A DNA stretch of 64,000 nucleotides. Origin: an uncultured Alphaproteobacteria bacterium. Its GTDB lineage: Bacteria; Electryoneota; RPQS01. The stretch spans positions 153,443-217,442 of the forward strand of contig CAZPKG010000004.1 of assembly GCA_964587105.1 (NCBI GenBank), read 5' to 3'. Positions 39,756 to 56,393 of the stretch are shown one piece after another. Positions within the stretch are counted from its first letter, which is position 1, and each line of letters starts with the position of its first letter. The notes under the pieces were generated by a model that did no database searches, had not been told where the DNA came from, and saw nothing but the letters and a program-made list of their open reading frames with translations. The position numbers and the translations under genes are program-made.

Positions 39756-39758
39756 GGA

Positions 39759-41589: not shown

Positions 41590-41591
41590 GT

Positions 41592-41675: not shown

Positions 41676-41693
41676 CTCTACACTTTATCTTTC

Positions 41694-43508
41694 CTATTGA
41701 ACACACTTTTGTAAAGTAATACTGAACACTGACCCTTTGCCAAGTTCGCTCTTAACTCGTATGGATCCGCCGTGAGCTTCCACGATTTCGCGTGCGATAG
41801 CCAGTCCAAGTCCAGCGCCGTCAGTGGCTACCTTGGATTTGCCGCGATAGAAGCGATCAAAAATGTGAGGCAGTTCTTCTTTCGGTATGCCCGGCCCTTG
41901 ATCTGCAATTGATATGTCTATGGTCATTTCATTGCAGATTGCTGAAAGGGTCACCTCACCTCCCGCCTGGCTGAACCTTAAGGCATTCGACAGCAGATTA
42001 CTGAATACGTGGGAAATACGCGCTTCGTTTGCAAATACTTCAGGCAAATCCTCAGGTACATCAAGCACTAACTTAACCCCCAGATGCTGATATGCGCTTT
42101 GCGAAACTGCGACAGCACGGTCGATAAGTTTGTAAGTGGACACCGGCACAAGATCGAGCTGCGTCTTTCCTGCTTTATAGCGGGCAACGTCTAACAATTC
42201 ATTAACGATGCCAAACAAGCGCTCAGCATCATCACGAGCTGCGGTTAACAATTCAGCTTGTTTGTCATTGAGTTGACCGACTCTTTCGTCGTGCAGCATG
42301 TGCAGAGCCATTCGGACTGATGTTAAAGGAGTCTTTAACTCGTGTGAAACAGTCGACACCAGGTCATTTTCCAATTCAGACACGCGGCGCAACCGCGTGA
42401 CATCGACGTAGACTAGGATAATCCCGACCGGCAGCCCTTCTGAATCTCTTATGGGCAGTACGCGCGGTAGAAAGAACTTTTCCTTTCCTTTGACAAACGC
42501 TTGCACGACTCGTTCAGATTCTTTGTCCCCAACGAATTGGCCGGAGGTCTCTACATGCAGAGACTTGTGCCACTCGGGCGATGTGTCGTATATGCTCCCA
42601 CCTGGCCGGACCCCTACGATTCTACGTGCGGCCGCGTTGGCAAGCTCTACCGTTGCATCCGGAGCCATGACAATAACTGCATCTGGCAAGCTGTCGAGGA
42701 CCAGTTGCGCGCTTTGCTGACTTCGAGCCAGTTTTGCTTGATCTCCCTGCTTGAGCAACCTGAGTTCTGCGGCCATGTCATTGAACGCTTCCATGAGCTG
42801 ACCCACTTCATCGCGAATTCTGGGCTGGAGTACAAGGTTTAGATTGCCAGATTGAATTTCCCGTATTGATTGAGTTAGAATTTTCAGGGGTTGAAGAACT
42901 GCTCGTCCAGTAACTAAGATCAGGATCAATGCTAATAGAATTCCGGCTATTATCAGGACATAAGTGAATTGCTTTGCTTCTTGCGCACGGCGCTGCGCTT
43001 CTCCATCGACGGCAATCATGTTGGACAAGTTCATGTCCGAAATGTTCTGAATGACTAATTGAAGTCGCTCGACAGCAGGCCTAAACAGTCCATGATAACG
43101 TGCGAGAGTAGTCGAATCACCAAGTGTACCGCCGGTTAGTTGTAGCGCCTCTGCTTGGACTTTTTGCCAGAACTCAATGACAGCTTTGACTGAATCTCTT
43201 TCACCGGATAAAGTGATGTTCCCCTGTTCAAGCTTAAGCATTTGATTAAACTGTTGTGTCGCGGCTTCAATTCTCATGCTGTCAAGGCGCTGGCCGAGTA
43301 CTGTGACATCCTGCACTTCATCGTGAAAATCGCTGAGAGCCTTCTTCAACCCTTCGCAATAGACAATGCTGTCATAGTTTTCCCGTAGAATTTTGGTCAG
43401 AGCATTCCCGTAACTGTTTACAACGCTAGTACCGATTGCGGCTACGAGAACCGCGACGGCAAGAAGTGCCGAAAAACCTACAATGAGTTTTGCTTTAAGG
43501 CTGAACAT
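41694..43508 (-). CDS. Sensor histidine kinase (TM, periplasmic helical domain, TM, HAMP, PAS, HisKA, HATPase) of the kdp cluster
   Basis: Start placed at MFSLK (ATG 43508 after AAGGA); VSHELKTPLTS; NLLSNALRF; DQGPGI; GAGLGLAIA. Confidence 0.9.
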   Translation of the reverse strand: MFSLKAKLIVGFSALLAVAVLVAAIGTSVVNSYGNALTKILRENYDSIVYCEGLKKALSDFHDEVQDVTVLGQRLDSMRIEAATQQFNQMLKLEQGNITLSGERDSVKAVIEFWQKVQAEALQLTGGTLGDSTTLARYHGLFRPAVERLQLVIQNISDMNLSNMIAVDGEAQRRAQEAKQFTYVLIIAGILLALILILVTGRAVLQPLKILTQSIREIQSGNLNLVLQPRIRDEVGQLMEAFNDMAAELRLLKQGDQAKLARSQQSAQLVLDSLPDAVIVMAPDATVELANAAARRIVGVRPGGSIYDTSPEWHKSLHVETSGQFVGDKESERVVQAFVKGKEKFFLPRVLPIRDSEGLPVGIILVYVDVTRLRRVSELENDLVSTVSHELKTPLTSVRMALHMLHDERVGQLNDKQAELLTAARDDAERLFGIVNELLDVARYKAGKTQLDLVPVSTYKLIDRAVAVSQSAYQHLGVKLVLDVPEDLPEVFANEARISHVFSNLLSNALRFSQAGGEVTLSAICNEMTIDISIADQGPGIPKEELPHIFDRFYRGKSKVATDGAGLGLAIAREIVEAHGGSIRVKSELGKGSVFSITLQKCVQ

Positions 43509-43521
43509 GCTTTCCTTGTAT

Positions 43522-43537
43522 TGCGAACGAGATACCA
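43522..43537 (-). promoter_or_regulatory. Candidate sigma54 -24/-12 promoter for the HK-kdpFABC-kdpD' transcript
   Basis: Minus strand TGGTATCTCGTTCGCA (GG-N10-GC). The implied leader is only a few nt, which weakens the call. Confidence 0.4.
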
Positions 43538-43584
43538 ACTGCTTCGTCAACTCGGCCGCCTTGTAAAAGATGAAGTTAAGAACC

Positions 43585-43616
43585 AAAAACGCCTCTCCGG
43601 TAACGGAAAGGCGTTT
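43585..43616 (-). terminator. Intrinsic terminator after the sigma54-dependent regulator
   Basis: Minus strand AAACGCCTTTCCG ttac CGGAGAGGCG TTTTT. Confidence 0.75.
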
Positions 43617-43663
43617 CAAGAATCAATGACAAATCGGCAAAGCATTGAAATTTGAAATGCATA

Positions 43664-44992
43664 TCATATGTTGTATTCTTTGCGCCGCCTCCATAAGGTT
43701 GCCGAGTCTATCCCCAATATGCGCGCGGCGTCTTCCAACGATTTGGTCTTCGCCAAAACACTTCGAATGTGCGCTTCCTCCACGGCGCTAATTGGAATCA
43801 TACCCCCAATTTCTGCACCGCGTTTGCTCTCGCGCAGTTTCTCAGGGAGATGTTCGAGTAGGACAGTCGAACCATGGCAGAGAATCACCGCACGTTCAGT
43901 GATGTTCCTAAGTTCGCGCACGTTCCCCGTCCAGTCATGATTTTCTAAAGCCAACAATGCATCGTCCGCAAATCCGACGATCTTGCGGTGATTCTGCGCC
44001 GAAAAAAAGCTTAAGAAATGCTCGGCCATCTTTACGATATCATCGCGCCGCTCTCGCAACGGCGGAAGTGTGATTTCAAACACATTCATCCTATAATACA
44101 GTTCCTGGCGAAAGGTCCCGGCACTCACAGCTTCTTCCAGATCGATGCTCGTCGCCGCAATAATTCGCACATCGGCCTTGCGGGTTTCTGCTTCGCCGAT
44201 TCGCTCGTATTCATGATCTTGAAGGAAGCGCAGCAATTTCGGCTGCAAAGAGAGCGGAAGGTCGGCAATTTCATCCATAAAGAGAGTGCCACCCTCTGAT
44301 GCAGCTACACGACCCTGCGCGTCCTTTATCGCTCCTGTAAAAGACCCACGTTTGTGTCCAAAAAGCTCACTTTCCAACAGATGCGTTGGAATTGCCGGGC
44401 AAGATATTGTATTAAATGGTTTGTCTGCGCGATCGCTCCACTTTCCAATCATCCTCGCAATCAGGCTCTTACCGGTCCCGCTCTCCCCACGCAATAGCAC
44501 GGTTATATTGGAACGGGCCGCCTCACGAGCGAGATTCAATGCTTGCTGCATGCCCGCATGAGCCGTTGCGAGTTCTATTTCCGGATGAAGCTGATCTAAC
44601 GTCGATTGCAGGGCTTCCACCTTCTGTTCAAGGTTTCGCAATTCACGAACTCGATGCAGTATCACCTGAATCTGCGCAGGCGTAAACGGCTTCGGAACAT
44701 AGTCTGCTGCTCCGCGCTTCATCGCTTCAACGGCCGTCTCAATACTCGCATATGCCGTGATAATCACAATCTTCATCCAAGGTTGTGCGGCCCTCAGCTT
44801 GACGATAAGCTCCATCCCCGAATCAACGCCCAGCCGTAAGTCCACAAAAGCAAGATCAAACGACGTGCGCGACGTCTCAGCCAGAGCATCAATAACGTTG
44901 CTTACCGCGCTGACGCTATGTTCTTCTGTCTCGAGAAGAATCGTGAGGGTTTTGCGAATATTTTGTTCGTCGTCAACGATGAGAATTTGCAT
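43664..44992 (-). CDS. NtrC-family sigma54-dependent response regulator (REC-AAA+-HTH)
   Basis: VDDE receiver; GESGTGKS; ESELFGHKRGSFTGA; FRQELYYRMNV; WTGNVRELRN; ILGIDSATLWRR. Confidence 0.93.
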   Translation of the reverse strand: MQILIVDDEQNIRKTLTILLETEEHSVSAVSNVIDALAETSRTSFDLAFVDLRLGVDSGMELIVKLRAAQPWMKIVIITAYASIETAVEAMKRGAADYVPKPFTPAQIQVILHRVRELRNLEQKVEALQSTLDQLHPEIELATAHAGMQQALNLAREAARSNITVLLRGESGTGKSLIARMIGKWSDRADKPFNTISCPAIPTHLLESELFGHKRGSFTGAIKDAQGRVAASEGGTLFMDEIADLPLSLQPKLLRFLQDHEYERIGEAETRKADVRIIAATSIDLEEAVSAGTFRQELYYRMNVFEITLPPLRERRDDIVKMAEHFLSFFSAQNHRKIVGFADDALLALENHDWTGNVRELRNITERAVILCHGSTVLLEHLPEKLRESKRGAEIGGMIPISAVEEAHIRSVLAKTKSLEDAARILGIDSATLWRRRKEYNI

Positions 44993-45067
44993 GACTGTTG
45001 TCGTAGGGGTTTGTACTCCGGAATATAACGAATTTCTGCGAATACATCCTCGAAGGCTCGATCGAAC

Positions 45068-45132
45068 AACAAAACACCCTTGCTAAGTTCATGCTTAACA
45101 AGGGTGTAATAGTGGAGACGGCGGGAATCGAA
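45068..45132 (-). repeat. att copy 2: 21-bp tmRNA-like 3' fragment (45112-45132) plus terminator-like hairpin (45075-45106)
   Basis: The 65 bp match 52979-53043 with 3 mismatches. Confidence 0.85.
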
Positions 45133-45248
45133 AGAGCCGTCGCATTTCGAACATGCCTTGTAAGACAACTATAATCAACAAGTAAGCTACCTGCGTGGCT
45201 CTTCTCGATTAACTGTTAAGTCTATATTTTAGCATCGAACAGCAACCG

Positions 45249-45270
45249 AAAACAGGACAAAAACAGGACA
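45249..45270 (+). repeat. Tandem 11-bp direct repeat AAAACAGGACA x2; candidate integrase arm-type sites
   Basis: Exact repeat about 120 bp inside the att core. Confidence 0.6.
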
Positions 45271-45367
45271 GTGAAATTAGGGGTGCATGGGGACAAAGTT
45301 ACCCGGGGGGTCGCAAGGGCCGTAAGGCATAACCAGGGATATTTGTGCTGTGATTAGATCTCCAAGT

Positions 45368-46273
45368 TCACTCCTTGAGAGTTGTTGGTGCGCTCGATTT
45401 CTCAATCTGCACAGTACAATGCTCGATGCCGAATTGACATCGGAACAAACTTAACGCAGCCTCGAGAATCAAGTGCGGTTCGGTTCCTTCATCGCAAATG
45501 AGGTGCACCGTCAACACGGGTTCGCCGCTCGCAATCTGCCAGACATGGAGGTCGTGAAACCCCGTTACATTCGGTAACCGTTCAATTTCGTATCCAATCT
45601 CTTGAAGATTCCATGCCACGGGAGTTCCTTCAAGCAGAATATGGATTGACTCCCAAACGAGTTTCCACGTGCTAAACAGAATGAGGATTCCAATAAGGAT
45701 GGATACAACGGGATCAATCCAATACCCTACACCGGCGAGCACTGCTAACCCGGCAGCGATAACACTAATCGATCCAGCTCCGTCAGCTACTAAGTGCAGA
45801 AAGGCCGAGCGGACATTGAGATCGTCATGTCGGTGCTTAGACAACATCCAAGCGCTTCCGAGGTTCGCGAGTAGCCCGAGGACCGCTACGGGTAGCATCA
45901 CCTTTGCATCCACTGGCTGCGGATTTCCAATTCGTTGAAAAGCTGCATACATGATGAAACCCACAACACCCCAGAGTACAAGGCCGTTCAGCAAACCAGA
46001 CAGTACTTCTAAGCGGCCCATTCCATAAGTCTTACTCATGGTTGGAGGACGAGCGGAAATGTGTGCAACCCACAAAGCCGCACTCAGCGCGACAACATCC
46101 GAAAGCATGTGTCCGGCATCGGCCAGCAACGCCAGCGATCCGCTAATCCAACCTCCAACGAGCTCAATTAGGAGAAAGGTGCCATTGAAGATCAGCGCCC
46201 ATCGCAGCGCCCGGATCTTGTTGTAGCGATCCGGAGCGCGCGCGTGGAGTTCATTGTGGAGGATACTAACCAT
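45368..46273 (-). CDS. Cation diffusion facilitator (CzcD/ZitB-like Zn/Co/Cd transporter)
   Basis: SLALLADAGHMLSD, GRLEVL, NVRSAFLHLVAD, DPVVS, HDLHVWQI, HCTVQIE; the start overlaps the upstream RND stop. Confidence 0.9.
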   Translation of the reverse strand: MVSILHNELHARAPDRYNKIRALRWALIFNGTFLLIELVGGWISGSLALLADAGHMLSDVVALSAALWVAHISARPPTMSKTYGMGRLEVLSGLLNGLVLWGVVGFIMYAAFQRIGNPQPVDAKVMLPVAVLGLLANLGSAWMLSKHRHDDLNVRSAFLHLVADGAGSISVIAAGLAVLAGVGYWIDPVVSILIGILILFSTWKLVWESIHILLEGTPVAWNLQEIGYEIERLPNVTGFHDLHVWQIASGEPVLTVHLICDEGTEPHLILEAALSLFRCQFGIEHCTVQIEKSSAPTTLKE

Positions 46274-49200
46274 GATGCCGGTGCTCCGCTTCGACGACTT
46301 CCTCAAGAATGGACTCCTCAGCCTTTCGCTTGGCTCCGAATTTCCAATATAAGGCGGGTAGAACGACCATGTTAAGCGCTGTTGATGTCAGAAGACCGCC
46401 CAAAATGACAATTGCCATCGGCGTCTGAATCTCCTTACCTGGTTGCCCGCCACCCAATGCTAATGGAAGCAGTGCTAATCCGGCGCAAAGAGCCGTCATT
46501 AGAATGGGGTTCATTCGCTCCATACTGCCACGGATGATCGCGCTACGGGCGGACATCCCCTCCTTGTCAATCAGATCATGGAAATGGGCAATCATCAGAA
46601 TACCGTTTCTGGCTGCAATTCCGAACAATGTCACAAAGCCAACCAACGCCGCAATGGAGACAATACCGCTGGTGAACTTGATGGCGAACACCCCGCCGAT
46701 TAGCGCAAGTGGCAGGTTGACCATGACCAGAAATGCATCACGAAACGTTCCGAACTCCATGTAGAGTAGAACGAGAATTGCACCCAACGACAGGAGTGAA
46801 AGCAACAGGATGACTCGACTCGCGGCCTCCGCGCTTTCGAACTGTCCGCCGTACGAAATGAAGTATCCGTCGGGCATCTTCACATTTGCCGATACCTTCG
46901 TTCTAACCTCTTCGACCACGCTTCCAAGATCGCGTCCTGCGATATTCGACTGCACCACGATCTTTCGACTTACATTTTCTCTGCTGATCGAGTTTGGTCC
47001 GCTTGAGCGATACACTGTTGCCATCTCATTCAGCGGCACTTGCGGCCCCGCCGGTGTCGCGAAGAGACTGGTGCGAATCAGTTCGTCATCCTTCCGTGCG
47101 TCTTCAGGAAATCTAACAACAAGATCAAAGGGAAGCTGGCCTTCCAATACCTGTCCCACAACCTCGCCGTTGAATGCCGTCTCAATGTTCTCAGCGAGAT
47201 CGGCGACTTGCACACCATAGACCGCCATCGCATCGCGGTTCATCTCGACGCGAAGTTGGGGCACGTCCACCTGAGGCTCTACGGCCAAGTCCACCAGACC
47301 ATCGACAGTCTGCATTTGCGCCTTTACTTGTTGGGCAATATTCCGAAGCTCATAGAGGTTGCTTCCGAATATCTTTACGGCCAGCGCGGCCTGCGTTCCG
47401 CTCAGCATGTGATCAATCCGGTGCGAAAGCGGCTGACCGATACTGATGATAGCGCCGGGTACGTCGGTAAGCAATTCTCGCAGCTCATGGAAGACTTCTT
47501 CCTTGCGGAATCCCTCCGGACTGAGCCGGACCTCCAGTTCAGTTTGATTGCTTCCGAAGGCATGTTCATCCAACTCGCCTCGGCCCGTTCGTCTGGCCAC
47601 CGACAGCACCGCAGGATGTGTCATTAACTTTTGCTCAACCAATTCTCCAATATCTGTAGATTCCTGCAGCGACGTTCCCGGTGGTGTGATGCAGATCACT
47701 GTGGCGGATCCTTCGTTAAACTCAGGCAGGAACGATCGGCCCAACTGAGTGTACACGACAAGAGTTATCGCGATTAAGCCCGCAGAAAACGCGATGACCC
47801 AGTTGCCTCGTTTTAGAGCCCATTCCAAAGCTGGCCGGTAGCCCGTCTTAAGTTTACGTACAACCCATGTTTCGTGATGTGCTGACTTCTGCTTCAATGC
47901 GGGCAGCAGGTAGAGGCTGAGTGCCGGTACGATAGTTACTGCAACCATGAGTGAAGCGAACACCGCGATCACGAAGGCAAAACCAAGCGGCAACAGCAAT
48001 CGGCCTTCAATGCCTGACATGAAGAACAGTGGCGCAAATACGGCGATAATAATGAACGTTGCAACAACCATTGGCTGCCGTATTTCGTTGGATGCCGCGA
48101 AAATGACTATCAATGATGGCCGCTGCTTTTCCTCCGGTAATGCCTTGTTCTCTCGGAGTCTCCTAAAGACGTTTTCCACGTAGATGATGGCGTCGTCAAC
48201 CAGCACGCCAACAGCGATAGCCATTCCTCCAAGCGTCATAGTGTTCACGGTCAACCCCAACCAGTACATCGCAAGTATTGCGATAATCAACGACAAAGGA
48301 ATAGAAACCAGACTGATGAATGTCGTGCGCATGTTTGCTAGGAAGAGGAGCAGGATAATCGTAACCAATATCGCCCCGTCACGCAGTGCTTCAACGACAT
48401 TATGGATACTCACATCGATGAAGTCCGCTTGCCGGAATACATGATTGTTGAGTTCCACGTCAGCTGGTAGTATCGGTTTCATTTCCTCGATCAATGCGTC
48501 GAGTCGCTCTGTGAGTTCCAGCGTGTTGGCATTAGGTTGCTTCTGAATGGACAGGACAACCGCATCGCGGCCGCTGATCGAAGATGTTCCGAGCACGGTT
48601 CCAGAACCGACCTTGACATCAGCCACGTTCTCGACAAGTACCGGACTTCCATCCCGAACTGTCACCACAGCTCGCTTTAAGTCTTCAAGCTCTTCAATTC
48701 TCCCAAGTCCGCGTATCAGGTATTCGTTTCCACTTGCCACAAAAAAACCACCTGTCGAATTCAAATTTGCCTTGCTCACGGCTTCCTTAAGCTCTTCCAG
48801 GCTGATCTGGTAGGCGGCTAATCTCTCCGGGCTTGCAAGGACTTGATACTGCTTCCGTTCACCGCCAATTGCGATGACTTGCGAGACTCCCGATATGGCA
48901 AGCAATCGCCTTCTCAAGATATTGTCTGCGAAGGACCGCAATTCCATCGCTGGCAGCGAATCACTCGACACCCCAACGAGCATGATCTCACCCATCAGAG
49001 AGGAAACAGGAGCCATCATGGGCGGATCCATTCCCGGTGGCAACAGGCTGAGAACCGATTGCAGTTTCTCCGCCACGATTTGTCTTGCTTGGAACACATC
49101 CGTGCCCCATTCGAATTCAATCCAAATAACAGCAAGGCCGGTGGCGAGCGACGAGCGCACGCGGCGAACTCCGGACGCACCATTCATGGCCGTTTCAATT

Positions 49201-49403
49201 GGGAAGGCAACCAATGTCTCCACTTCTTCAGGCGCCATGCCGTGTGCGTCTGCAAGGATGGTCACGGTTGATGCCGTTAAGTCGGGGAAGACATCAACAG
49301 GCAATCTGAAGGTTACAAAATAACCCAAGAACAGAATCAGCACTGAAGCGAGCACAACGATGAAGCGATTCTCGAGCGAGAACCTGATTATCTTTTCAAA
49401 CAT
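46266..49403 (-). CDS. CusA/CzcA-family heavy-metal RND permease
   Basis: LPVDVFPDL, GVLVDDAIIYVEN, GFVTLFGIAARNGI, RMNPILMTAL; His-rich C-terminus. Confidence 0.93.
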   Translation of the reverse strand: MFEKIIRFSLENRFIVVLASVLILFLGYFVTFRLPVDVFPDLTASTVTILADAHGMAPEEVETLVAFPIETAMNGASGVRRVRSSLATGLAVIWIEFEWGTDVFQARQIVAEKLQSVLSLLPPGMDPPMMAPVSSLMGEIMLVGVSSDSLPAMELRSFADNILRRRLLAISGVSQVIAIGGERKQYQVLASPERLAAYQISLEELKEAVSKANLNSTGGFFVASGNEYLIRGLGRIEELEDLKRAVVTVRDGSPVLVENVADVKVGSGTVLGTSSISGRDAVVLSIQKQPNANTLELTERLDALIEEMKPILPADVELNNHVFRQADFIDVSIHNVVEALRDGAILVTIILLLFLANMRTTFISLVSIPLSLIIAILAMYWLGLTVNTMTLGGMAIAVGVLVDDAIIYVENVFRRLRENKALPEEKQRPSLIVIFAASNEIRQPMVVATFIIIAVFAPLFFMSGIEGRLLLPLGFAFVIAVFASLMVAVTIVPALSLYLLPALKQKSAHHETWVVRKLKTGYRPALEWALKRGNWVIAFSAGLIAITLVVYTQLGRSFLPEFNEGSATVICITPPGTSLQESTDIGELVEQKLMTHPAVLSVARRTGRGELDEHAFGSNQTELEVRLSPEGFRKEEVFHELRELLTDVPGAIISIGQPLSHRIDHMLSGTQAALAVKIFGSNLYELRNIAQQVKAQMQTVDGLVDLAVEPQVDVPQLRVEMNRDAMAVYGVQVADLAENIETAFNGEVVGQVLEGQLPFDLVVRFPEDARKDDELIRTSLFATPAGPQVPLNEMATVYRSSGPNSISRENVSRKIVVQSNIAGRDLGSVVEEVRTKVSANVKMPDGYFISYGGQFESAEAASRVILLLSLLSLGAILVLLYMEFGTFRDAFLVMVNLPLALIGGVFAIKFTSGIVSIAALVGFVTLFGIAARNGILMIAHFHDLIDKEGMSARSAIIRGSMERMNPILMTALCAGLALLPLALGGGQPGKEIQTPMAIVILGGLLTSTALNMVVLPALYWKFGAKRKAEESILEEVVEAEHRHHG

Positions 49404-49414
49404 TGATTTGCTCC

Positions 49415-51076
49415 TTAGTGTCCGTGACCGGCATGACCTGCATCGGCGGCGCTAATCTTCAATGATGCAAGTCGGACCTTGTATGCACCAATGCTCACAA
49501 CACGCTCGCTTGCATTTAGCCCGCTAATGACTTCGACGTATCCTTCATCCTTTGCGCCAGTCTCCACAACTCGTCGGGCAAACTCCTCTCCTCCGACCTG
49601 TACATAGACTACAGATGTACCATCCTCATCGAGAACTGACGATTCGGGAACCGCCAGTGCTTCCCGCGACGATCGGGTCTTTAGATACACCTGCGCATAG
49701 CTGCCGGGGCGGAAAAGCGAATTAGAGTTATTGAGTTCGAAAATCACTGGAACGCGTCGCGTCACCGGATCAAGCAAAGTACTCACGGTGACAAGTCTGC
49801 CTCCAAGACTGGACACCCGGTAGATCTCGTTGGAACCACTCAAGGAAAATGTGGCATCGTCCACTTGATCCAGTCGGTCGGATTCTGAAACCGGGACTTG
49901 TACTTCCAGCCAAATCCGAGATGGATTAATGATGTTGAAGAGATGCTCCCCCATCACAACGTGCTGACCATAACGCAAATGAATGTCCGTGATTACTCCA
50001 CTGGCCGGAGCACGCAGGTGAAAGTGCTCTCCTTCAGAGAGCATCTCGTCTATGTCTGAGTCCAGTCCGCCAAGCGTGCCTCTTACGCGACTTCGCTTAT
50101 TCTCCAAGTCCAGTCTGGCTTCTTCCTTGCGTTTAGCCGAAACCGCTCCTTCATCCGCGAGCCGGCTGACTCGCTCGTACTCAGCCTTAGCCAGCCTGTA
50201 ATCATTCAGCAACTGCGTCCATCCACTTTCCGGGCCGCCTGACGGTGCAACGCGAGCCAGCACTTCGCCTTTGGAAACTTGCTGCCCCGGCCGAACGATT
50301 CCGTGTTGAGGATCCGGCACTAAGACTCCGTCAAACGGAGCAAATACTTCCGCTTCACCGACACCTGCCGCCTTGATTTCGCCAAGTGCACGAATATTGT
50401 CAGATATGGTTCGACGTTCAACAGGGCGAGATGCAAACTCAACCTGCCATTGCTGCTCTTTTAGAAAATTCACAATCTCTTCGGAAGATCCATTTGCAGA
50501 GCCTTCGTGCCCGGATGATTCGGCGTGTGCTTCACCATCGTCGTGGCCATGCTCTTCACCTTCCGCATGAGCTGCATGATCGTGACCGGCGTGAGCTTCA
50601 CCTTCTGTAGCAAACACGTCAACGTCGTCGAAAACGACACGCTGGATGCGCCCCTCTCGTGTCAGACTAAATACCATCTGATACTCACCTGCGGCGGGAG
50701 CTGTTACATCTAAGTCAAATATTCCCGGACGCGCGGGGCCGGCGGCATCCGCTCTTTGCACTTCCCGATCACGTTGCATGAATTGCAAAGTCAGTGAACC
50801 GGCTCCGACTGGCTTGTTTGTGGCCAAGTCCGTGACATGCGCCAGCACTTCTGTTTCCTGCCCGCCGAGCATTTTCGTCAACTCGACGAAGACTTCAAGG
50901 CTATCTTGCCACACCGTGAAGGACAGCGCCTCGTCGCCGTGAGCATGACCAGCGTGCTCTGCACCGCTCTCTTCGTTGTGGACATTCTGATCGGTGTCTG
51001 TCTTGGACTTACAGCCGAAAATTACAAGCGTGGCTACTAATGACGACACCGTGATCAATGAAGGGTATTTTTTCAT
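49415..51076 (-). CDS. CusB/CzcB-family periplasmic adaptor lipoprotein with His-rich segments
   Basis: Lipobox IFGC; HAGHAHGD and HAGHDHAAHAEGEEHGHDDGEAH tracts; MFP motifs (APFDG, APASGVI, LFRPGSYA, LAVPESSV). Confidence 0.9.
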   Translation of the reverse strand: MKKYPSLITVSSLVATLVIFGCKSKTDTDQNVHNEESGAEHAGHAHGDEALSFTVWQDSLEVFVELTKMLGGQETEVLAHVTDLATNKPVGAGSLTLQFMQRDREVQRADAAGPARPGIFDLDVTAPAAGEYQMVFSLTREGRIQRVVFDDVDVFATEGEAHAGHDHAAHAEGEEHGHDDGEAHAESSGHEGSANGSSEEIVNFLKEQQWQVEFASRPVERRTISDNIRALGEIKAAGVGEAEVFAPFDGVLVPDPQHGIVRPGQQVSKGEVLARVAPSGGPESGWTQLLNDYRLAKAEYERVSRLADEGAVSAKRKEEARLDLENKRSRVRGTLGGLDSDIDEMLSEGEHFHLRAPASGVITDIHLRYGQHVVMGEHLFNIINPSRIWLEVQVPVSESDRLDQVDDATFSLSGSNEIYRVSSLGGRLVTVSTLLDPVTRRVPVIFELNNSNSLFRPGSYAQVYLKTRSSREALAVPESSVLDEDGTSVVYVQVGGEEFARRVVETGAKDEGYVEVISGLNASERVVSIGAYKVRLASLKISAADAGHAGHGH

Positions 51077-51078
51077 GG

Positions 51079-52323
51079 TTAGTTCTCCAGGGGTTCAAGA
51101 CCAGCCACCCGGCGCATTTCGGCGCGGGCCAGGGCCAGTGAGTTTCTCAATCTTAGAGCTGCATCCTGTGCCTCGATGCCGGTACGCAACGCATCCACCA
51201 ATTCCAGCGCACTCATCTCGCCCTCCAAGTACAACCGCACTCCACGCTGCATGTTAACGTTGGCGCTGTCTTCCAGCGAGCCATTCAATGAGAAGTTTAT
51301 CTGCTCGGCAAGCTGAAGTTGTCTGAAAGCTGATCGAACTTGCTGTTCCACAAGTTGTCGCTGACTCCTGTGCTGAATCTCGGCCTGCGCAAGCTCCGAT
51401 CTTGCGACATTTGTTTCGCTTCTACGTTGGCCCCACAATGGGATTTCCAGCTCGCCTTCCACATAGAGTCCGCCGGGACCGGGATCCATAGTCTTGTCGC
51501 CAATTCCAAAACTCATGTCCGGAAATTGACTCCAGCGTGCTTGACTAAGGGCCTTTTGTGCGGCACCGAGTGACTTTTCAGAACGGACGAGTTCTGCTCG
51601 ATGTTGTAGCGCATAGCTCACCGCTTCGTCTTCAGATTTGAACAAAGTTGACGGCGGTTCAGTAAGCTCTATCGTCTGAAAACTCTCAGGCGAAAGCCCC
51701 GTCAAGTGAATCAATTCGGACAGGGCGTTCGCAACCTCTTGCTGGAGCTCCTGTTTGTGATTCTGAAGCTGTATCTTCTCCAACACGAATCTCTGCTCAT
51801 CGTAAGGGGCGATGTCTCCAAGTTCGCGACGAGCTGCGGTCGCTTTCGACAGATGCTCTGACTGCATCAGCACGCTATCCATTAGTTCGCTTTGACGTTG
51901 GAAGCGATCGTATTCATAAGCTTGAGTCAGCACTCGTACAATGAGCTCGCGCTTCGCTTCGACATATTCGGCCTGAGCCGCTTCATAAGCTGACTTGGTC
52001 GAACCACGCTTTGATGCCTGTGACCAGAGAAAGCCCAGGCTCTGCCGCACTCCTATGATGCGCTCGGTAGTTCCGGCGTTATCATTCAGGGATTCTTGCG
52101 ATCCGAACATTGAGGGATTGGGGAAAGCTCTGCTGCCCGTGTATGCTGAACGGGCACGAGATAAATTCGTTTGTGCCTCGGCCAATACGGGTGATGTAGA
52201 GTCGAGAGATGCGATTATCTGCTGAAGCGATAGTGCATGGGGTTGTGCAGCGGAAGGTGAGAAAGGGACTGTAACAAAAAACGCTCCAAGCAGGAGCGTC
52301 AACCAAGTTAGTTGAGATGGCAT
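51079..52323 (-). CDS. TolC/CzcC-family outer-membrane efflux protein
   Basis: Signal peptide; FPNPS; two OEP helical repeats; YLEGEMSALELVDA. Confidence 0.88.
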   Translation of the reverse strand: MPSQLTWLTLLLGAFFVTVPFSPSAAQPHALSLQQIIASLDSTSPVLAEAQTNLSRARSAYTGSRAFPNPSMFGSQESLNDNAGTTERIIGVRQSLGFLWSQASKRGSTKSAYEAAQAEYVEAKRELIVRVLTQAYEYDRFQRQSELMDSVLMQSEHLSKATAARRELGDIAPYDEQRFVLEKIQLQNHKQELQQEVANALSELIHLTGLSPESFQTIELTEPPSTLFKSEDEAVSYALQHRAELVRSEKSLGAAQKALSQARWSQFPDMSFGIGDKTMDPGPGGLYVEGELEIPLWGQRRSETNVARSELAQAEIQHRSQRQLVEQQVRSAFRQLQLAEQINFSLNGSLEDSANVNMQRGVRLYLEGEMSALELVDALRTGIEAQDAALRLRNSLALARAEMRRVAGLEPLEN

Positions 52324-52390
52324 TCCTGTACTCCAAGTTCACATGAGTGTTAGCGCACCTTTTGAGGCGCGGAGTCATCCTATGGGTGAA

Positions 52391-52723
52391 TCAGGAGAAC
52401 AGTCGAGGAGGGCGTTCTATGGCAAGTAGGAAGGTCTCTAAGGTAGGGTTAACGTGGAAGTGCTCAGCCTTTGACACGGGCAAGTGGTGAGCATCATGCG
52501 ATGTTGTTAAGACGCCAATTACGACAGTGTGGCAAAAGCAGCCGCATTTGCAGTCATCGTGTTCTCCGCCTGCAGTCGATGAGGAGTGCTCATGCCCATC
52601 CTCGCAATCATGACCCATCGTCCGAACCAGCGGCGACGCGATGATTAGCAAGCTGAAGACGGTAAGACTGATGATTAGAAGTTGACTTTTCACAATATGG
52701 ACGGCATGTATACCCTTGAGCAT
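52391..52723 (-). CDS. Small exported/membrane His/Cys-rich protein leading the efflux operon (CzcI/DUF2946-like position)
   Basis: Hydrophobic N-terminus; GHDCEDGHEH...HDDCKCGCFCH; ends IERPPR. Start uncertain. Confidence 0.55.
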   Translation of the reverse strand: MLKGIHAVHIVKSQLLIISLTVFSLLIIASPLVRTMGHDCEDGHEHSSSTAGGEHDDCKCGCFCHTVVIGVLTTSHDAHHLPVSKAEHFHVNPTLETFLLAIERPPRLFS

Positions 52724-52978
52724 CAAACTGCAATATACGCCTTTTTGTTCCGTGAAACAATAACTGGGCCGGGATAACACCTGACACATAAGCCACGTCT
52801 ACCTATCGGTCTACCGTCCTCATCTGATAGAGACGGCGGGATGTTTTCTCGCGTTCGCTACAGAAATCACTCGCCATAACTATATATATTACATTGCTAT
52901 AACTCTTAGCTTCTGTCCGGTCTTTCGATCGATGTACTGTTTTTGTCCTGTAAAATTTGTCACTATTTGCTGCCAGAT

Positions 52979-53043
52979 AACAAAACACCCTTGCTAAGTT
53001 CATACTTAACAAGGGTGCAATTGTGGAGACGGCGGGAATCGAA
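52979..53043 (-). repeat. att copy 3: 21-bp tmRNA-like 3' fragment (53023-53043) plus terminator-like hairpin (52986-53017)
   Basis: Minus strand TTCGATTCCCGCCGTCTCCAC; 62/65 identity with 45068-45132. Confidence 0.85.
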
Positions 53044-53138
53044 TTATTAGTCCACTTCTGGTCGTGTACTCTAACAGAAAAAAGAAACAGCCCCTTACAG
53101 GGGATGTCTTCGTCTCAGGATTCTACATAAGTTCAATA

Positions 53139-53180
53139 TTTAGCACGTAACTTCATGCGGATTTAGCACGTTTTTAGCAC
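53139..53180 (+). repeat. Three TTTAGCAC direct repeats (53139, 53162, 53173); candidate arm-type sites
   Basis: The last two are spaced 11 bp apart; related TAGCAC/TTGCAC pair at 35331/35341 in the homologous arm of island C. Confidence 0.55.
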
Positions 53181-53466
53181 ACCTGAATTGTTCTAAGGAA
53201 ACCTTCGCTCGCGCGATTCAAAATATGAATTCGATAAGTCGTGTTCAGAGCCAAATCGAGTGTACTATGACTTCCCGTCGCCATCTGCGTCAATACCCCC
53301 ATGATGTGAACCGCACTTGTGGAATTATCTGATCGACAAGTCAACCTTGTCCCGAACCAATTGATCAAGAGAAAGTGGGTTGACGTTGTTATTATACGAA
53401 GTACATCGCAATCACGACAGTTTTGGGACAGATTGGCACCACGTTGCACGCACCCGACACGAATAA

Positions 53467-53931
53467 CTAAGGATTGTTCACCAGCACGATGTAATATTGC
53501 TGCGTCGCCGGGCCTGCCAGCACATTCGTGTCCGTGTAAAACGTGTCCGTCACGGTTGCAACGAAGTTGCCGGGACCTGGTACAAAATCAATCGAAGGAG
53601 CACGGTGAATCGAATAGCTGCCCGCTCCGGCCCGCGTCTCCCAATAGAGCCGCGCATCCGGTGTCGCTTCTTTGATGACCAGGCGTTGAATCGGCGAGAG
53701 CGGTGATACTTGCAACACGGGCGAGAGGAATCCCGCGTACAAGTTGAAATTCGCGCTCGACTGCACGCCAATTGGCGTCGGCTGCCCGAACGCCGACACC
53801 AGCCCGAAATTCGTTGTACTCGACGCGCCGCCGCCGGCATCCATCACGCTCTTGGTCAACCTGAAATTCTCGCTCTGCGATTGCGCCCACAACAGGGTAG
53901 GGAGGAGGAGAAGAAAAAGTGCCTTCTTCAT
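53467..53931 (-). CDS. Small secreted protein (154 aa) with Gly-rich N-domain and FN3-like C-domain
   Basis: Signal peptide MKKALFLLLLPTLLWA; SVMDAGGG...GQP...YAGF; LYWE...SYSIHR...DTFYTD. Confidence 0.7.
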   Translation of the reverse strand: MKKALFLLLLPTLLWAQSQSENFRLTKSVMDAGGGASSTTNFGLVSAFGQPTPIGVQSSANFNLYAGFLSPVLQVSPLSPIQRLVIKEATPDARLYWETRAGAGSYSIHRAPSIDFVPGPGNFVATVTDTFYTDTNVLAGPATQQYYIVLVNNP

Positions 53932-53942
53932 GGTTCTGTTCC

Positions 53943-56393
53943 TTACTGCTTATCTGAAGTATTCAAACTGCCAAATTGCAAAATCGCGGCCTCTAGCTGC
54001 TTCACACGTTCGTCGAGATTTGCGATTCGCTCGTCCTTCGTCCGGTTGCCCGTAATCAGCTCCGCATTCTGCTTCGCCAACTCCTGCACCGCCGCGAATA
54101 ACACACCGTCCGCGTCAATCGTCGAGATACCGAGCGAGTCGCTGCCCAGTTGGAACGCATTCCAAAAATCCTGCGCCATCGGACCGATGTGCTCGGTGCC
54201 TTCAGCTTCTGACTTGTACTCCCAGTTCTTGATCGGAAGCGCCGCCACTTTGTCCAGAACGGCCTTGGTGTCGGTCAGATGAATGTCGCGCTTCCTTGTG
54301 CTATCAGATACGGCAACCCAAGCGTTTGCGCCGGCCGGAAGGATCGCACCGGACGTTTGTCCCGCATTGGAGTACAAACGGAAACCACCTGCCGCACGGG
54401 CGTTAAACTGATTGGCTACTGAAGATGACAGTACCGATCCGCTGTTGTCCGCGAAGACAAAACAGCCAGAATTGGCCGCATAAGCTTGCCGCCCCATTGC
54501 GACCGAATAGCTCCCCTGCGCCTCATTGCTTCTCCCTCCTGGCACTGATGAATAATCCCCTGAAGCAATGTTCTCGCTGCCGCCACCGATGGTGGAATAG
54601 AATCCTGATGCAAAGTTATTGCTGCCAGCACCAATGAAAGCATGCGTGCCTGAACAAGTATTCCCGGCGCCTCCGACGATTGAGGCATATTGATCGGAAA
54701 CAGAGTTATCCGAGCCGCCTCCGATAAAGCCATATTGAGAAGGCCCTGTAAGGACATTCCGAGCCCCCGCCCCAATAAACGAAAAAGCGGACCTGTTCTC
54801 ATTCGAGGAGCCTCCGACGGTTGCTGCGTTCAGACCAGAAACCAAATTGTCAGAGCCGCCTCCAAGAAACCCATGTTGAGAAGCGCTTTCAAGGGTGTTT
54901 CGAGCGCCCCCTCCTATGACGGAAAAGGCGGAAGTAATATCGTTGCGTTGGCCACCTACAATTGCTGAATAATTGCCCCGAACAGAATTCGAATCAGCTG
55001 CACTAAGTCCGCCGCCTCCACCTATGAACGAGTAATTGCCATGTGCTTTGTTTTCGCGGCCGCCAACGACGACCGAAGAAAGACCGTGTGCAACATTGGA
55101 CACACCGCCGCCAATTATTGAATGTTCCCCGGACGCAACGTTCGCGAAACCCCCACCGACTACCGAAGCAAACTGACCGGATGCGGTGTTACTTTCCCCA
55201 CCGCCAACAGATGAACCATTGCCGGATGCCAAATTGGACAACCCTCCTCCAACGTATGCGTAATGGTCTGTGGCAACGTTGTACTGCCCGCCCCCAACGG
55301 TCGCAAAGTTGCCGAGTGCGGAGTTCCCCAGGCCTCCGCCCGACGTCGAGCCGAGACCTTCGGATTGATTCCCTTGCCCTCCACAGACTGTCGACCACTC
55401 TCCCGATGCCGTATCCTGCACTCCTCCACCGACAAAAGAATATACTCCCGATGCGACGTTGTCCCGTCCTCCTGCCACCACCGCAAAGCTGTCCGATGCT
55501 GTGTTGTTCTGCCCACCGCCAATACGCGCACTAAAGCCGGTCGCGTCATTCTGCTGGCCACCGCCGATGGACGACAAGTACCCTTGCGTGCGATTGATAT
55601 AGCCGGATTGTATGCCGGAATAGAACCCGTCCGCATAATTCCCCGCGCCACCACCCACCACGGCGTAATTGCCCCGCGCGCTGTTCGAGTCCAGAGCTGC
55701 ACTCCCACCGCCACCGCCAACAGTCGCATATATGCCGTTCGCACGGTTAAACCTGCCGCCGCCAATGGCTGTGTTCTGACCGATCGCACGGTTGTCATTG
55801 CCGCCCGCGACGACCGAGTTCTGTCCGCTGGCGGTATTATCCGAGCCGCTGAGAACCGCCGCGCGGTTTGCCGTCGCGCTGTTCGTTCCACCGAGCGCAA
55901 TCGAGTTCGACCCCGAGGCTGTGTTGTTTGACCCTGCCACAAACGAGTTGCTCCCCGAGTTAGTCTGTCCGGGTCCAAATGTCCCCTTGCCCGTGACGGT
56001 GAGGTCGTTGAAGACGGTGCCACCCAGCGCACCGTCCACCGTTCCCACGCGATAAGCGTGACCGACCGAGACGACTTGATTTCTCGGACTCATTTCCGTA
56101 TCTGCACCAATCGTCACGCCCAGCCAACGGTTGACAGCAAACGAGTCCGGCAGCACGGTCACGGAACCTAACAATACGTTGAACAGCCCATCTGTCACCG
56201 TTACGGCTGGATGCGACTCTGTCCAAATCGCCGTTCCGCCTCCGGCGGAGCCGTAAAGCCTAAACGTCATCGCCACCGTCGTGTCGAGCGGTGCGCCGCC
56301 CAACGAGGTCAATTGTCCCTGATAGTTGACAAGTTGCGGTATCGCAAAGGCGTTCAGGGCCGCGGCCAAAAGGGCTGCAAGTGCGGTTTTCAT
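53943..56393 (-). CDS. Secreted trimeric fibre-like protein: Gly/Asn-rich beta-repeat shaft plus Peptidase S74 intramolecular chaperone domain
   Basis: Signal peptide; VNYQGQL...MTFRLY...WTESH...DGLFNVLLGS; about 30 repeats of GG..N.A.G..S; SDSTRK and HIGPMAQDF; terminal coiled coil. Confidence 0.85.
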   Translation of the reverse strand: MKTALAALLAAALNAFAIPQLVNYQGQLTSLGGAPLDTTVAMTFRLYGSAGGGTAIWTESHPAVTVTDGLFNVLLGSVTVLPDSFAVNRWLGVTIGADTEMSPRNQVVSVGHAYRVGTVDGALGGTVFNDLTVTGKGTFGPGQTNSGSNSFVAGSNNTASGSNSIALGGTNSATANRAAVLSGSDNTASGQNSVVAGGNDNRAIGQNTAIGGGRFNRANGIYATVGGGGGSAALDSNSARGNYAVVGGGAGNYADGFYSGIQSGYINRTQGYLSSIGGGQQNDATGFSARIGGGQNNTASDSFAVVAGGRDNVASGVYSFVGGGVQDTASGEWSTVCGGQGNQSEGLGSTSGGGLGNSALGNFATVGGGQYNVATDHYAYVGGGLSNLASGNGSSVGGGESNTASGQFASVVGGGFANVASGEHSIIGGGVSNVAHGLSSVVVGGRENKAHGNYSFIGGGGGLSAADSNSVRGNYSAIVGGQRNDITSAFSVIGGGARNTLESASQHGFLGGGSDNLVSGLNAATVGGSSNENRSAFSFIGAGARNVLTGPSQYGFIGGGSDNSVSDQYASIVGGAGNTCSGTHAFIGAGSNNFASGFYSTIGGGSENIASGDYSSVPGGRSNEAQGSYSVAMGRQAYAANSGCFVFADNSGSVLSSSVANQFNARAAGGFRLYSNAGQTSGAILPAGANAWVAVSDSTRKRDIHLTDTKAVLDKVAALPIKNWEYKSEAEGTEHIGPMAQDFWNAFQLGSDSLGISTIDADGVLFAAVQELAKQNAELITGNRTKDERIANLDERVKQLEAAILQFGSLNTSDKQ

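Follow-up and report, generated by a model that had tools for sequence, protein, structure and literature searches.

Tandem islands for metal efflux and potassium uptake, flanked by ssrA-like repeats and lacking an integrase, in an uncultured wastewater bacterium

The 64-kb stretch of DNA analyzed here (hereafter, the window) carries two compact gene islands, denoted B and C, that lie side by side between direct repeats of a short core. How were such islands assembled at one locus, and can they still move, given that neither encodes recognizable machinery for integration or transfer? A preliminary description of the locus had portrayed B and C as minimal cassettes, devoid of integrase, relaxase and phage genes, that retain their own arm sites and accumulate on an integron-like platform at ssrA, with decayed islands as the alternative. 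The gene content bears out the first part of this portrayal. When all large ORFs in the window were scanned against Pfam, no integrase, relaxase, transposase or phage gene was detected, and tblastn searches with 33 integrases of the relevant family yielded no match, so that an integrase gene was found neither within B or C nor elsewhere in the 64-kb window.

The nature of the repeats provides the first clue. The window contains three direct copies of the 20-nt core TGGAGACGG[C/A]GGGAATCGAA, against 0.01 expected, all on the minus strand: copy 1 (35191..35210), with one mismatch, and the exact copies 2 (45113..45132) and 3 (53024..53043). Between copies 2 and 3, the similarity reaches 65 nt at 95% identity, including a terminator hairpin. 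In 25 of the 37 genome loci, the 24-mer pattern of the core is the 3' end of a tmRNA gene called by ARAGORN, which supports a derivation of the repeats from the ssrA 3' end. All three window copies are 3' fragments of ssrA (copy 1, a distal one, from the T-loop to the acceptor end); the tmRNA T-stem does not follow copy 3, which leads into an island arm instead. In the genome locus L012, the core runs on through GAATCGAA and then CCCGCG into the tmRNA body, and the window departs exactly at the junction of these two segments. Thus, direct repeats of the ssrA 3' end bound both islands.

The ssrA gene itself is another matter. Searches with ARAGORN and Rfam detected no tmRNA or tRNA gene in the 64-kb window, so that no intact ssrA stands at the proximal end of the islands or the array within it. 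The gene may lie beyond the window. An indirect link between the array and a live ssrA is suggested by contigs from the source metagenome (X1/X2), in which the 3' flank of tmRNA resembles the TTAGCAC-type right arm of L145. Against the array, in L012 and in one contig of metagenome X4, the tmRNA gene directly adjoins a homolog of the 154-aa ORF that follows core 3 in the window; ssrA is accordingly expected at 53044-53466, where it is absent.

Island B (7.9 kb, between the cores at 45113 and 53024) carries a metal efflux cargo, as claimed, with CDF and czc genes confirmed by Pfam. Its genes (45368..52789, minus strand) encode, according to Pfam and translation, a CDF transporter, a czcA-like RND pump, a czcB-like fusion protein, a czcC-like outer-membrane factor and a 132-aa ORF rich in His and Cys. 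The left arm (45133..45300) consists of CTAAGTCTATATTTTAGCA, two copies of AAAACAGGACA and GGGTGCA; the tandem pair of AAAACAGGACA at 45249-45270 occurs nowhere else in the window (0.03 expected). Close to the right end, at 52933..52954, two 11-nt units, TGTACTGTTTT and TGTCCTGTAAA, form a motif pair inverted with respect to the left-arm pair, with its final base 69 nt from the core. The exact inverted 14-mer, TGTTTTTGTCCTGT, lies within it at 52938-52951, so that both the doubled motif and its inverted counterpart, as initially reported, are real; the inverted repeat between the arms widens to 19 nt, with 18 of 19 positions matching. A terminator module on the minus strand (52979..53023, with a hairpin at 52986-53017) is supplied by island B itself and would end a tmRNA transcript on that strand. 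Thus, B lacks integration and transfer genes and is flanked on both sides by cores and conserved arms. The right end of B also contains a decayed relic of the ssrA 3' region, a fourth copy (52826..52858) with a T-arm-like hairpin and a 12-nt exact match to GAGACGGCGGGA at 52830-52841, which is kept in L017 as well.

Island C (9.9 kb, between the cores at 35191 and 45113) is organized differently. Its potassium uptake cargo (35508..44992, minus strand), with kdp confirmed by Pfam, comprises a KdpD-sensor/Usp/PTS-EIIA protein without the kinase part, kdpC, kdpB, kdpA, a HAMP-PAS histidine kinase and a sigma-54 response regulator. The left arm (35211..35355) contains a terminator-like hairpin (~35254-35276), AAGTTCAA and then ATAGCACATATTTGCACAC (~35329-35347), and aligns with window 53044-53190, L101 and L005. 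The right end (44993..45112) is just 120 nt long, contains neither a TAGCAC nor a ACAGGACA motif, and includes a terminator hairpin (45075-45106) that is 95% identical to that of island B. Hence, cores are present on both sides of C, with an arm of its own type on the left side only; the retention of own arms holds for B, at both ends, and fails for C, with its B-type right end. Judging from this combination, C looks like a deletion chimera, decayed and probably fixed in place.

To the left of core 1 lies a chromosomal flank with scdA, narK and the nar operon. To the right of core 3, an arm of the same type as that of C (53044..53190) contains a hairpin, AAGTTCAATATTTAGCAC and three direct copies of TTTAGCAC (53139-53180), and is 80% identical to L101 5461-5607. 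This type of left arm recurs at window cores 1 and 3, in L101 and in L005. The TAGCAC-type repeats that had been assigned to the arms of islands A and C are limited to the left arms, given that the C right arm has none and the right end of A falls outside the window. The genes that follow (53467..64000), namely, the 154-aa ORF, an 816-aa Peptidase_S74/beta-roll protein, ORFs of 446 aa and 594 aa and a last ORF, 1368 aa or longer, that leaves the window, are either the cargo of a large island A or chromosome.

What could have brought these units to the locus becomes apparent from relatives that do encode integrases. In integrase-bearing relatives located at ssrA (L045, L056, L120, L134, L145 and, with the motif variant ACAAGACA, L138), the order is integrase, motif, terminator, core, tmRNA. 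The integrases are PF00589 tyrosine integrases accompanied by an HTH_17 protein; in L134-L142 and L145-L148, the HTH_17 gene precedes the integrase gene. A conjugation module was not seen in any relative. L134 contains three copies of ACAGGACA, an intact tmRNA and 24 nt identical to window 45252-45275, and in L145, TTAGCACAAATTTAGCACACC adjoins integrase P0007. Thus, the expectation of tyrosine integrases near ssrA holds for the relatives; as for the source organism, there is none in the window, and a search of X1/X2 at 80% or higher DNA identity yielded no member of the integrase family, which counts against the array.

The motifs change along with the integrases. In a handful of loci, ACAGGACA accompanies integrases P0001, P0003 and P0006, ACAAGACA accompanies P0004, TTAGCAC accompanies P0007, and TGACAC, GTCAC or GGCAC accompany P0008 and P0027. 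Because the motif types differ by integrase subfamily, they are most likely arm-type sites bound by the integrase or the excisionase, and the pairing of each motif with its own subfamily supports the earlier suggestion of two arm specificities sharing one core. Both islands show kinship to integrase-bearing elements of equal att specificity: a 24-30-nt block is found beside the integrases of L045, L056, L120 and L134, a TTAGCAC block beside that of L145, and an integrase stump in L101. No left arm of an integrase-bearing element of the ACAGGACA type was recovered; it is from the shared 24-30 nt and L101 that we infer that the B left arm and the integrase-bearing right arms of this type belong to one attP type. 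The orientation of the B right-arm pair speaks against the array: all integrase-bearing right arms seen have the motif the other way round, and L017 has the same orientation as B.

Could the AAAACAGGACA and TTTAGCAC repeats instead be operator or promoter elements of the cargo, or replication iterons, with no role in recombination? The right-hand copy precedes the czc operon, about 145 nt ahead of its first ORF, and the same 19-mer is arrayed like iterons in unrelated phage contigs, where no integrase lies beside the arrays. However, the AAAACAGGACA-type motif keeps its distance to the core across czc, AbiE, T9SS-protein and integrase-module contexts, in integrase-bearing elements it follows the integrase stop codon and precedes the ssrA terminator, and it changes with the integrase subfamily, all of which makes a purely regulatory or replicative role highly improbable.

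In other genomes, both arm types recur with conserved sequence around different cargo. The conserved non-coding arm amounts to ~190-280 nt across genomes whose cargo is unrelated. The left arm of B matches those of L101 (82%) and L118 (69%), with different cargo in both; in L101, the cargo is AbiEi/AbiEii. L017 shares the right arm of B, next to an RND operon that is just 26-31% identical at the protein level; this element adjoins a complete tmRNA (159.6 bits), and there is no integrase within 4.3 kb. In L101, a 49-aa integrase stump lies beside the cassette with the B-type left arm, so that integrase decay, the alternative named at the outset, is documented among the relatives.

The gene content of the locus also varies among metagenomic populations, as predicted. 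All of this evidence is based on k=31 contigs, and these are interrupted at the repeats. The C-B junction was found in X1 and X11, B without C in X3, X4, X6, X7, X9, X12 and X14, and in an X20 contig, scdA is joined directly to core 3, with neither island present. In X14 and X12, B is flanked by two other elements with B-type arms; its left arm, CDF and czcA match the window at 100% identity and its right arm at 99.6%, and czcB-czcC contains a mosaic tract at 94%. The flanks of the window in X14 have only about one-sixth of the depth of B. X4 and X6, in which B occupies other contexts, also contain integrase homologs. The occurrence of B in differing arrays is consistent with mobilization without being proof of it. 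A 7,937-nt self-closing contig (L150) was considered as a potential circular form of B and rejected: two in-branches and two out-branches at single-copy depth mark it as a repeat-resolution artifact. The k=31 contigs thus show neither a circle of the kind suggested earlier nor an excision product.

Taken together, these observations make it probable that the window is the distal part of a tandem array of ssrA islands, with B and C being integrase-less derivatives of the family, of the type known as cis-mobilizable elements (CIMEs). Such an array would have been built by repeated site-specific integration into the ssrA 3' end, from the T-loop to the acceptor end, the target ssrA presumably lying on the minus strand outside the window. 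The complete members carry genes for an excisionase-like HTH_17 protein and a tyrosine integrase at the ssrA-proximal end, with tandem 9-11-nt motifs between the integrase gene and the core. Apparently, B and C lost the integrase after integration. Island B, with both conserved arms kept, seems to have been exchanged recently between genomes; it cannot move by itself and would do so only through the integrase of a sibling element, acting in trans or in cis within a composite, or else by homologous recombination through the conserved arms.

Two other readings have to be weighed against this one. The first takes B and C for inert remnants, ordinary ssrA islands that lost their integrase modules by deletion and are now fixed. 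Vertical divergence, deletions between direct repeats and homologous recombination, rather than site-specific mobilization, would then account for the differences between samples. The chimeric right end of C, the mismatch in core 1, the relic ssrA fragment within B, the L101 stump, the lack of an integrase in the window and the C-B junction that is stable over two studies all fit this reading. Nevertheless, we consider it rather unlikely that both islands are inert, because B is nearly identical among different neighbors in a genome that otherwise differs, with the low depth of the window flanks in X14, and because the non-coding arms are kept despite unrelated cargo.

The second reading, the strong form of the initial model, holds that B, and perhaps C, are maintained, att-flanked minimal cassettes that are routinely moved in trans by integrases encoded elsewhere, with an exchange platform at ssrA and at least two arm 'address codes'. 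It draws on the conservation of the B arms around unrelated cargo with no integrase in view (L101, L118, L017), the inverted right-arm pair common to B and L017, which points to an integrase-less lineage rather than to independent decay, the near-identity of the arms, CDF and czcA of B in the array of another organism, the co-variation of motifs with integrase subfamilies, and the integrase homologs in X4 and X6. However, the k=31 contigs contain no circle, empty site or attP junction, the 7,937-nt contig being explained by branching; C has no right arm of its own type; L101 displays plain integrase decay; an integrase is undetected in the window and in X1/X2; and homologous recombination through the arms could equally have transferred B, given that the mosaic 94% tract shows recombination to occur. 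We therefore regard routine movement in trans as unlikely. We also doubt that B-like cassettes form a self-perpetuating lineage with matched, inverted arm-site blocks, which swaps cargo (czc, the other RND pump of L017, AbiE in L101) and is moved between ssrA arrays by whichever sibling integrase subfamily reads the arm 'address', making the locus a platform rather than a graveyard of islands.

Under the favored array reading, metal-resistance and potassium-uptake operons ride on modular units, the constant parts of which are only the ~200-nt arms and a 20-nt piece of tmRNA; in relatives, toxin-antitoxin and anti-phage genes are found between the same arms. Should B-type units owe their movement to integrases encoded elsewhere, programs that recognize islands by their integrase would overlook gene flow that is active in activated sludge. 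Arm motifs and integrase subfamilies, which vary together, offer a small, testable system for how tyrosine integrases with one shared core site keep their specificities apart. If the units are no more than decayed islands, the locus is simply a well-preserved case of tandem accretion, of an ordinary kind.

Several known systems invite comparison. The attP site of phage lambda contains arm-type integrase sites, and tyrosine integrases target ssrA and tRNA genes at set sublocations. By analogy, a lambda-like attP is suggested by the short core, which matches the 3' end of a gene exactly and lies between arms with tandem 9-11-nt repeats 70-140 nt from it; in a handful of loci, the repeated arm motif stands at a fixed distance from the core and varies with the integrase subfamily. 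As in elements with ssrA- or tRNA-targeting integrases, the element would bring a replacement 3' end and a terminator. In contrast, the motif copies in the two arms of B are inverted, and the arm on the integrase side of integrase-bearing relatives has the motif the other way round. With integrons, the locus shares only the general picture of cargo units lined up in one place: there is no intI, attI, Pc promoter or attC hairpin, the units are 8-10 kb operons equipped with regulators of their own, and the repeats are pieces of the tmRNA gene, so that the label 'integron-like' does not fit.

The closest parallels are CIMEs and the ssrA islands of Dehalococcoides. The CIMEs among the ICESt1/ICESt3-type elements of Streptococcus thermophilus have lost integration and transfer genes while keeping attL and attR (Pavlovic 2004, Bellanger 2011, reviewed in PMC5704250); together with related elements, they form tandem arrays at the target gene's 3' end, and they originate when one element decays and another then integrates at the regenerated att site (PMC5704250). 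The window islands are likewise integrase-less and in tandem, between att-like cores, but they are targeted to ssrA, their host is an uncultured bacterium from a lineage that has type IX secretion (T9SS), the relatives show no conjugation module, and island C is missing one arm. In Dehalococcoides, tandem islands downstream of the single-copy ssrA are bounded by 20-bp direct repeats of its 3' end (McMurdie et al. 2011, PMC3146451), with insertion in the T-loop region and arrays of up to ~100 kb; 15 of these islands have no integration module and were proposed to be CIMEs with adaptive cargo, and a module with a large serine recombinase (DsiB) stands beside attL (PMC3146451). Here, too, each tandem island is bounded by a 20-nt ssrA repeat, and in L148 and L140, core copies are located about 101 kb from a tmRNA gene, but there is no serine recombinase (DsiB/DsiA) module; the relatives use an ssrA-proximal tyrosine integrase and HTH_17 protein and show lambda-like repeated arm motifs. 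Islands B and C are a known kind of decayed or hitch-hiking genomic island, found here in an uncultured wastewater bacterium, and the concept is itself already known, from CIMEs and accretion (PMC5704250) and from the ssrA islands of Dehalococcoides (PMC3146451).

The window contains three copies of a 20-nt repeat, cores 1, 2, and 3, which match the pattern TGGAGACGG[C/A]GGGAATCGAA on the plus strand at 35191 (with one mismatch), 45113, and 53024, compared with 0.01 matches expected in a pattern search of the window. Cores 2 and 3 lie within a 65-nt repeat (45068-45132 and 52979-53043, 95% identity) that, on the minus strand, reads as the 3' end of an RNA followed by a hairpin-plus-U-run terminator; the reverse complement of the core, TTCGATTCCCGCCGTCTCCA, comprises the T-loop, T-stem, and acceptor strand, with U70 and A73. 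Such fragments are too short for Rfam (a permissive search of 45040-45240 and 52700-53600 yielded only noise), and the core was therefore identified by its occurrence at genome loci. A 24-nt version is present in 37 species-representative genomes and coincides with the ARAGORN-called tmRNA 3' end in 25 of these; thus, the preliminary description was right in assigning the repeat to ssrA, the tmRNA gene. No tmRNA or tRNA gene was detected in the window, either with ARAGORN or with Rfam at the gathering threshold, nor near core 3 in the permissive Rfam search. In a related contig, L012, GAATCGAA is followed by CCCGCGTCCGAG and runs on into the tmRNA body, and all three copies in the window depart from it exactly past GAATCGAA, so that, by sequence, they can be recognized as att-type fragments. 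The absence of a T-stem and of any Rfam match ruled out a tmRNA of divergent or two-piece form at 53044-53466. A second case of an orphan ssrA 3' fragment beside housekeeping genes comes from an activated-sludge MAG labelled Calditrichaeota (HK-STAS-AABM5-4), where a terminator and core (L031, 3383-3455), 93% identical to the right arm of island B and lacking a tmRNA body, lie between dnaE and a CHAT-TPR gene.

According to the Pfam searches, the 9.9-kb segment between cores 1 and 2 (island C) encodes a KdpD-sensor/Usp/PTS-EIIA protein, KdpC, KdpB, KdpA, a HAMP-PAS histidine kinase, and a sigma-54 response regulator. The 7.9-kb segment between cores 2 and 3 (island B) encodes a CDF transporter, an RND pump, a fusion protein, an outer-membrane factor, and a His/Cys-rich ORF of 132 aa. 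The kdp regulator is split (35508-37139 and 41694-44992): the protein combining the KdpD sensor with Usp and PTS_EIIA_2 domains has no kinase, and the HAMP-PAS histidine kinase and sigma-54 response regulator are separate. As previously claimed, both islands are integrase-free. Pfam scans of all large ORFs in the 64 kb detected no integrase, transposase, relaxase, or phage genes, tblastn with 33 integrases of the family described below produced zero matches to the window, and the non-coding ends of the islands, under 250 nt, leave no room for a hidden recombinase. The rest of the window encompasses a nar operon, narK-type transporters, scdA, T9SS-sorted proteins, and TonB receptors. At the end of the narGHJI-like cluster (28105-30518), the gene for a NarI-type gamma subunit with a fused Rieske domain precedes a cytochrome b gene; an ORF of at least 1,368 aa without a Pfam match (59894-64000) continues past the window end. 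A GC-rich segment of about 40 nt, CGAGCGTGGGCGTCCCCGCCCCGCCGGAATC (35072-35113), is present in a single copy in the window and, in sludge metagenomes, at high depth in many different contexts, resembling a short dispersed repeat.

The motifs reported for the ends of island B are real. A tandem pair of AAAACAGGACA occupies 45249-45270 and is found nowhere else in the window in a pattern search, and the inverted 14-mer lies at 52938-52951; in full, the inverted repeat measures 19 nt (18/19 matching), and it consists of two 11-nt units. The arms of islands A (to the right of core 3) and C had been described as carrying TAGCAC-type repeats instead. This holds for the left arms, with three copies of TTTAGCAC at 53139-53180 and ATAGCACATATTTGCACAC in the corresponding position to the right of core 1, but not for the right end of island C, where no such repeat was found in 120 nt.

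A metagenome scan with the 19-mer retrieved 89 loci, five of which also contain the ssrA core. In three loci (L045, L056, L120), the motif pair lies past the end of a tyrosine integrase gene (PF00589, with the catalytic sequence LGHSTIVMTERY), in the stretch from its stop codon to the terminator plus core, and in the latter two, the core runs on into an intact tmRNA. The L045 integrase, used as a protein query, defined a family of 33 members (P numbers), and contigs were recovered for P0003, P0004, P0007, P0008, and P0027 (L134-L142, L145-L148). In these contigs, a gene for an HTH_17 (excisionase-like) protein lies directly upstream of the integrase gene, and in six of them (L134-L136, L138, L145-L146), the ssrA core follows the integrase gene at about 150 nt or less. 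In the P0021 contig (L143), the integrase gene begins about 150 nt past the tmRNA 3' end and points away from it, and an HTH_17 gene was not called; here (9497-11125; NCBI assembly GCA_030622545.1), TGTACTGTTTTTGTACTGT is found between the same-family integrase and ssrA. The motif next to the integrase changes with the integrase: L134, which adjoins a tmRNA with the tag ANDTYAMAA (the lineage also has ANDTYALAA), has three copies of ACAGGACA, including 24 nt identical to window positions 45252-45275; P0004 is accompanied by ACAAGACA, P0007 by TTAGCACAAATTTAGCACACC, and P0008 and P0027 by TGACAC, GTCAC, or GGCAC. Given this co-variation, the fixed distance to the core, and the location between the integrase gene and the core, the motifs behave as arm-type integrase/excisionase sites would, with binding a likely but indirect conclusion. 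No distal att site was found within 10 kb in L134, L137, and L140, all of which bear an integrase. A complete 7.5-kb integrase-bearing element is present in L147 (3897-11390) and in L148, with a full core on one side and a truncated one (AATTGAA) on the other; the same left arm of about 160 nt recurs where the next element starts, and a czc-like RND operon lies immediately to the left of the first core. Six matches of the 19-mer in viral contigs proved unrelated, representing coding sequence or iteron-like arrays with no match to the ssrA core; no integrase adjoins the two viral iteron-like arrays that were checked (L040, L044), and searches of viral contigs for the A-type arm and core patterns and for P0007 relatives gave zero matches.

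Comparison with these relatives shows the arms to be conserved modules, unlike the cargo. The left arm of island B, in the order core, hairpin, CTAAGTCTATATTT, motif pair, and GGGTGCA, is 82% identical to that of L101 over 189 nt and 69% identical to that of L118, which lead into a 2-kb AbiEi/AbiEii pair and a T9SS-tail protein, respectively. The right arm is 76% identical to that of L017 over about 280 nt, a stretch that covers the terminator and the inverted motif pair (TGTCCTGAAAC TGTCCTGTTTT) as well as a relic ssrA fragment. The L017 arm directly adjoins a complete tmRNA (Rfam 159.6 bits) and is preceded by an RND operon whose proteins are only 26-31% identical to those of island B; no integrase was found within the 4.3 kb at hand. 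Window cores 1 and 3 have the A/C-type left arm in common with L101 (80%) and L005, and the cargo behind it differs here too, comprising kdp, surface proteins, an OLD-ATPase/UvrD pair, and a histidine kinase plus sigma-54 regulator. Between the two arm types, which are related (AAGTTCAATATTTAGCAC vs AAGTCTATATTTTAGCAT), most of the difference lies in the distal repeats. This conservation across differing cargo, with distinct motif types that co-vary with the integrase, supports the proposal that one core serves two arm specificities; the real number is probably higher. In the ssrA array of L101, an AbiEi/AbiEii toxin-antitoxin cassette (3639-5164) and a Gabija-like pair of an OLD-family ATPase and a UvrD helicase (8896-12559) indicate that the same arms also ferry defence genes.

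The likely position of ssrA itself is less straightforward. In L012 and in one contig of metagenome run X4, the tmRNA gene is immediately beside a homolog (about 68% aa identity) of the 154-aa ORF at 53467-53931, which would place ssrA at 53044-53466; instead of ssrA, however, this interval holds a left arm of the A/C type plus 277 nt that matched nothing. The gap between the core and the 154-aa ORF is 423 nt in the window, compared with 431 nt in L012 (6363-6793), where it contains the complete tmRNA. The junction of core 3 with the A-type arm recurs in independent assemblies of X4, X7, X16, X20, and X27. Furthermore, the genes upstream of the tmRNA differ among L012, L134, and L145, which makes the L012 synteny weak as evidence. 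A tmRNA about 88% like that of L012 is present in X1 (SRR14271333, a run from the source bioreactor) and X2, at a depth similar to that of the window contigs. Its 3' flank (CCCGCCGATTTCGAGAAGAAATGACAAGACAAAACCCCTG...) matches, in L145, the stretch of right arm directly following the TTAGCAC pair, which is the appearance expected of the right end if island A starts at 53044. In a different genome, about 101 kb separates the tmRNA gene from copies of the core. The two hints conflict, and the balance tilts toward an ssrA located beyond the right end of the window.

Several features point to decay. L101 retains only the last 49 integrase codons (84% identity to P0004), preceded by stop codons, directly to the left of the core that opens the cassette with the B-type left arm. 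Island C combines an A/C-type left arm with a right end that is a B-type terminator without any motif, and the simplest reading is that a deletion took away its own integrase end; island C is most likely a fixed, decayed chimera. Core 1 has a mismatch. Within island B, a decayed remnant of the 3' part of ssrA (52826-52858, with a 12-nt exact match) lies about 190 nt to the left of core 3; it has a T-arm-like hairpin and extends beyond the crossover point, and its counterpart in L017 (about 4140-4170) is conserved but differs in the stem bases.

A purely fixed fossil is harder to reconcile with the distribution of island B among populations, given that cassette content and order vary, the outcome that the preliminary description had itself put forward as a test. 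Index searches and contig mapping found the window arrangement in runs X1, X2, X5, and X10 of a single bioreactor study, as well as in a sludge study, and an X11 contig crosses the C-B junction (44701-45776) with zero differences; exact-protein look-ups matched only short Logan contigs of the source sample. Island B occurs without C, at 98-100% identity, in X3, X4, X6, X7, X9, X12, and X14; the window flanks are absent or far below the depth of B in X6 and X9 and at about one-sixth of it in X14. In these samples, the 65-nt segment around the motif pair leads into at least five different downstream sequences, and in X14 and X12, B is flanked on both sides by other elements with B-type arms. There, B shows no differences from the window in the left arm and CDF gene, one in czcA, and 99.6% identity in the right arm. 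The czcB-czcC tract (49415-52323), at 94.3% identity to the X14 contig L150 compared with 99.6-100% for other parts of B, is a mosaic stretch produced by recombination within the cargo. An X20 contig joins the scdA end to core 3 and an A-type arm, with neither C nor B.

The sole candidate for the predicted 7.9-kb circle is L150, a contig of 7,937 nt whose ends overlap by 29 nt, closing B upon itself. In X14, however, B has the same depth (28.5) as long chromosomal contigs (25-29), whereas a shared 46-nt junction unitig (right-arm end, core, AGAG) has doubled depth (60.6). A second in-branch, a 7,338-nt contig whose right arm is of B type, and a second out-branch (GTTCACCAGAATAG...) are also present. 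Thus, both a circle and a tandem duplication were rejected in favor of a repeat-resolution artefact of an E2-B-E3 array, and the check for a circle came out negative in k=31 contigs, in which rare excision products are invisible. A joint in X4 that goes back from 53043 to 45209 is not a circle either, being a 166-nt unitig with a variant left arm that lacks 72 nt.

The idea of att-flanked cassettes accreting at ssrA therefore stands with respect to the ssrA cores, the lack of integrases, the two arm types, and the varying content, but not with respect to the circle, the right arm of island C, or the likeness to integrons, of which the locus shows no defining feature. Mobilization of island B in trans or in cis is plausible. 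The locus belongs to a known kind, tandem CIME-type islands bounded by ssrA repeats, and its structure matches the definition of cis-mobilizable elements (CIMEs) and their tandem accretion (PMC5704250). A close parallel is provided by the ssrA islands of Dehalococcoides, which are tandem, bounded by 20-bp ssrA repeats, inserted in the T-loop, and organized in arrays of up to 100 kb; 16 of these islands have an integration module and 15 lack one, the latter having been proposed as CIMEs (PMC3146451). Unlike Dehalococcoides, which employs serine recombinases, the relatives studied here encode a tyrosine integrase plus an HTH_17 module, the repeated arm motifs are lambda-like and co-vary with the integrase subfamilies, and the host represents a new lineage, an uncultured, T9SS-bearing wastewater bacterium.
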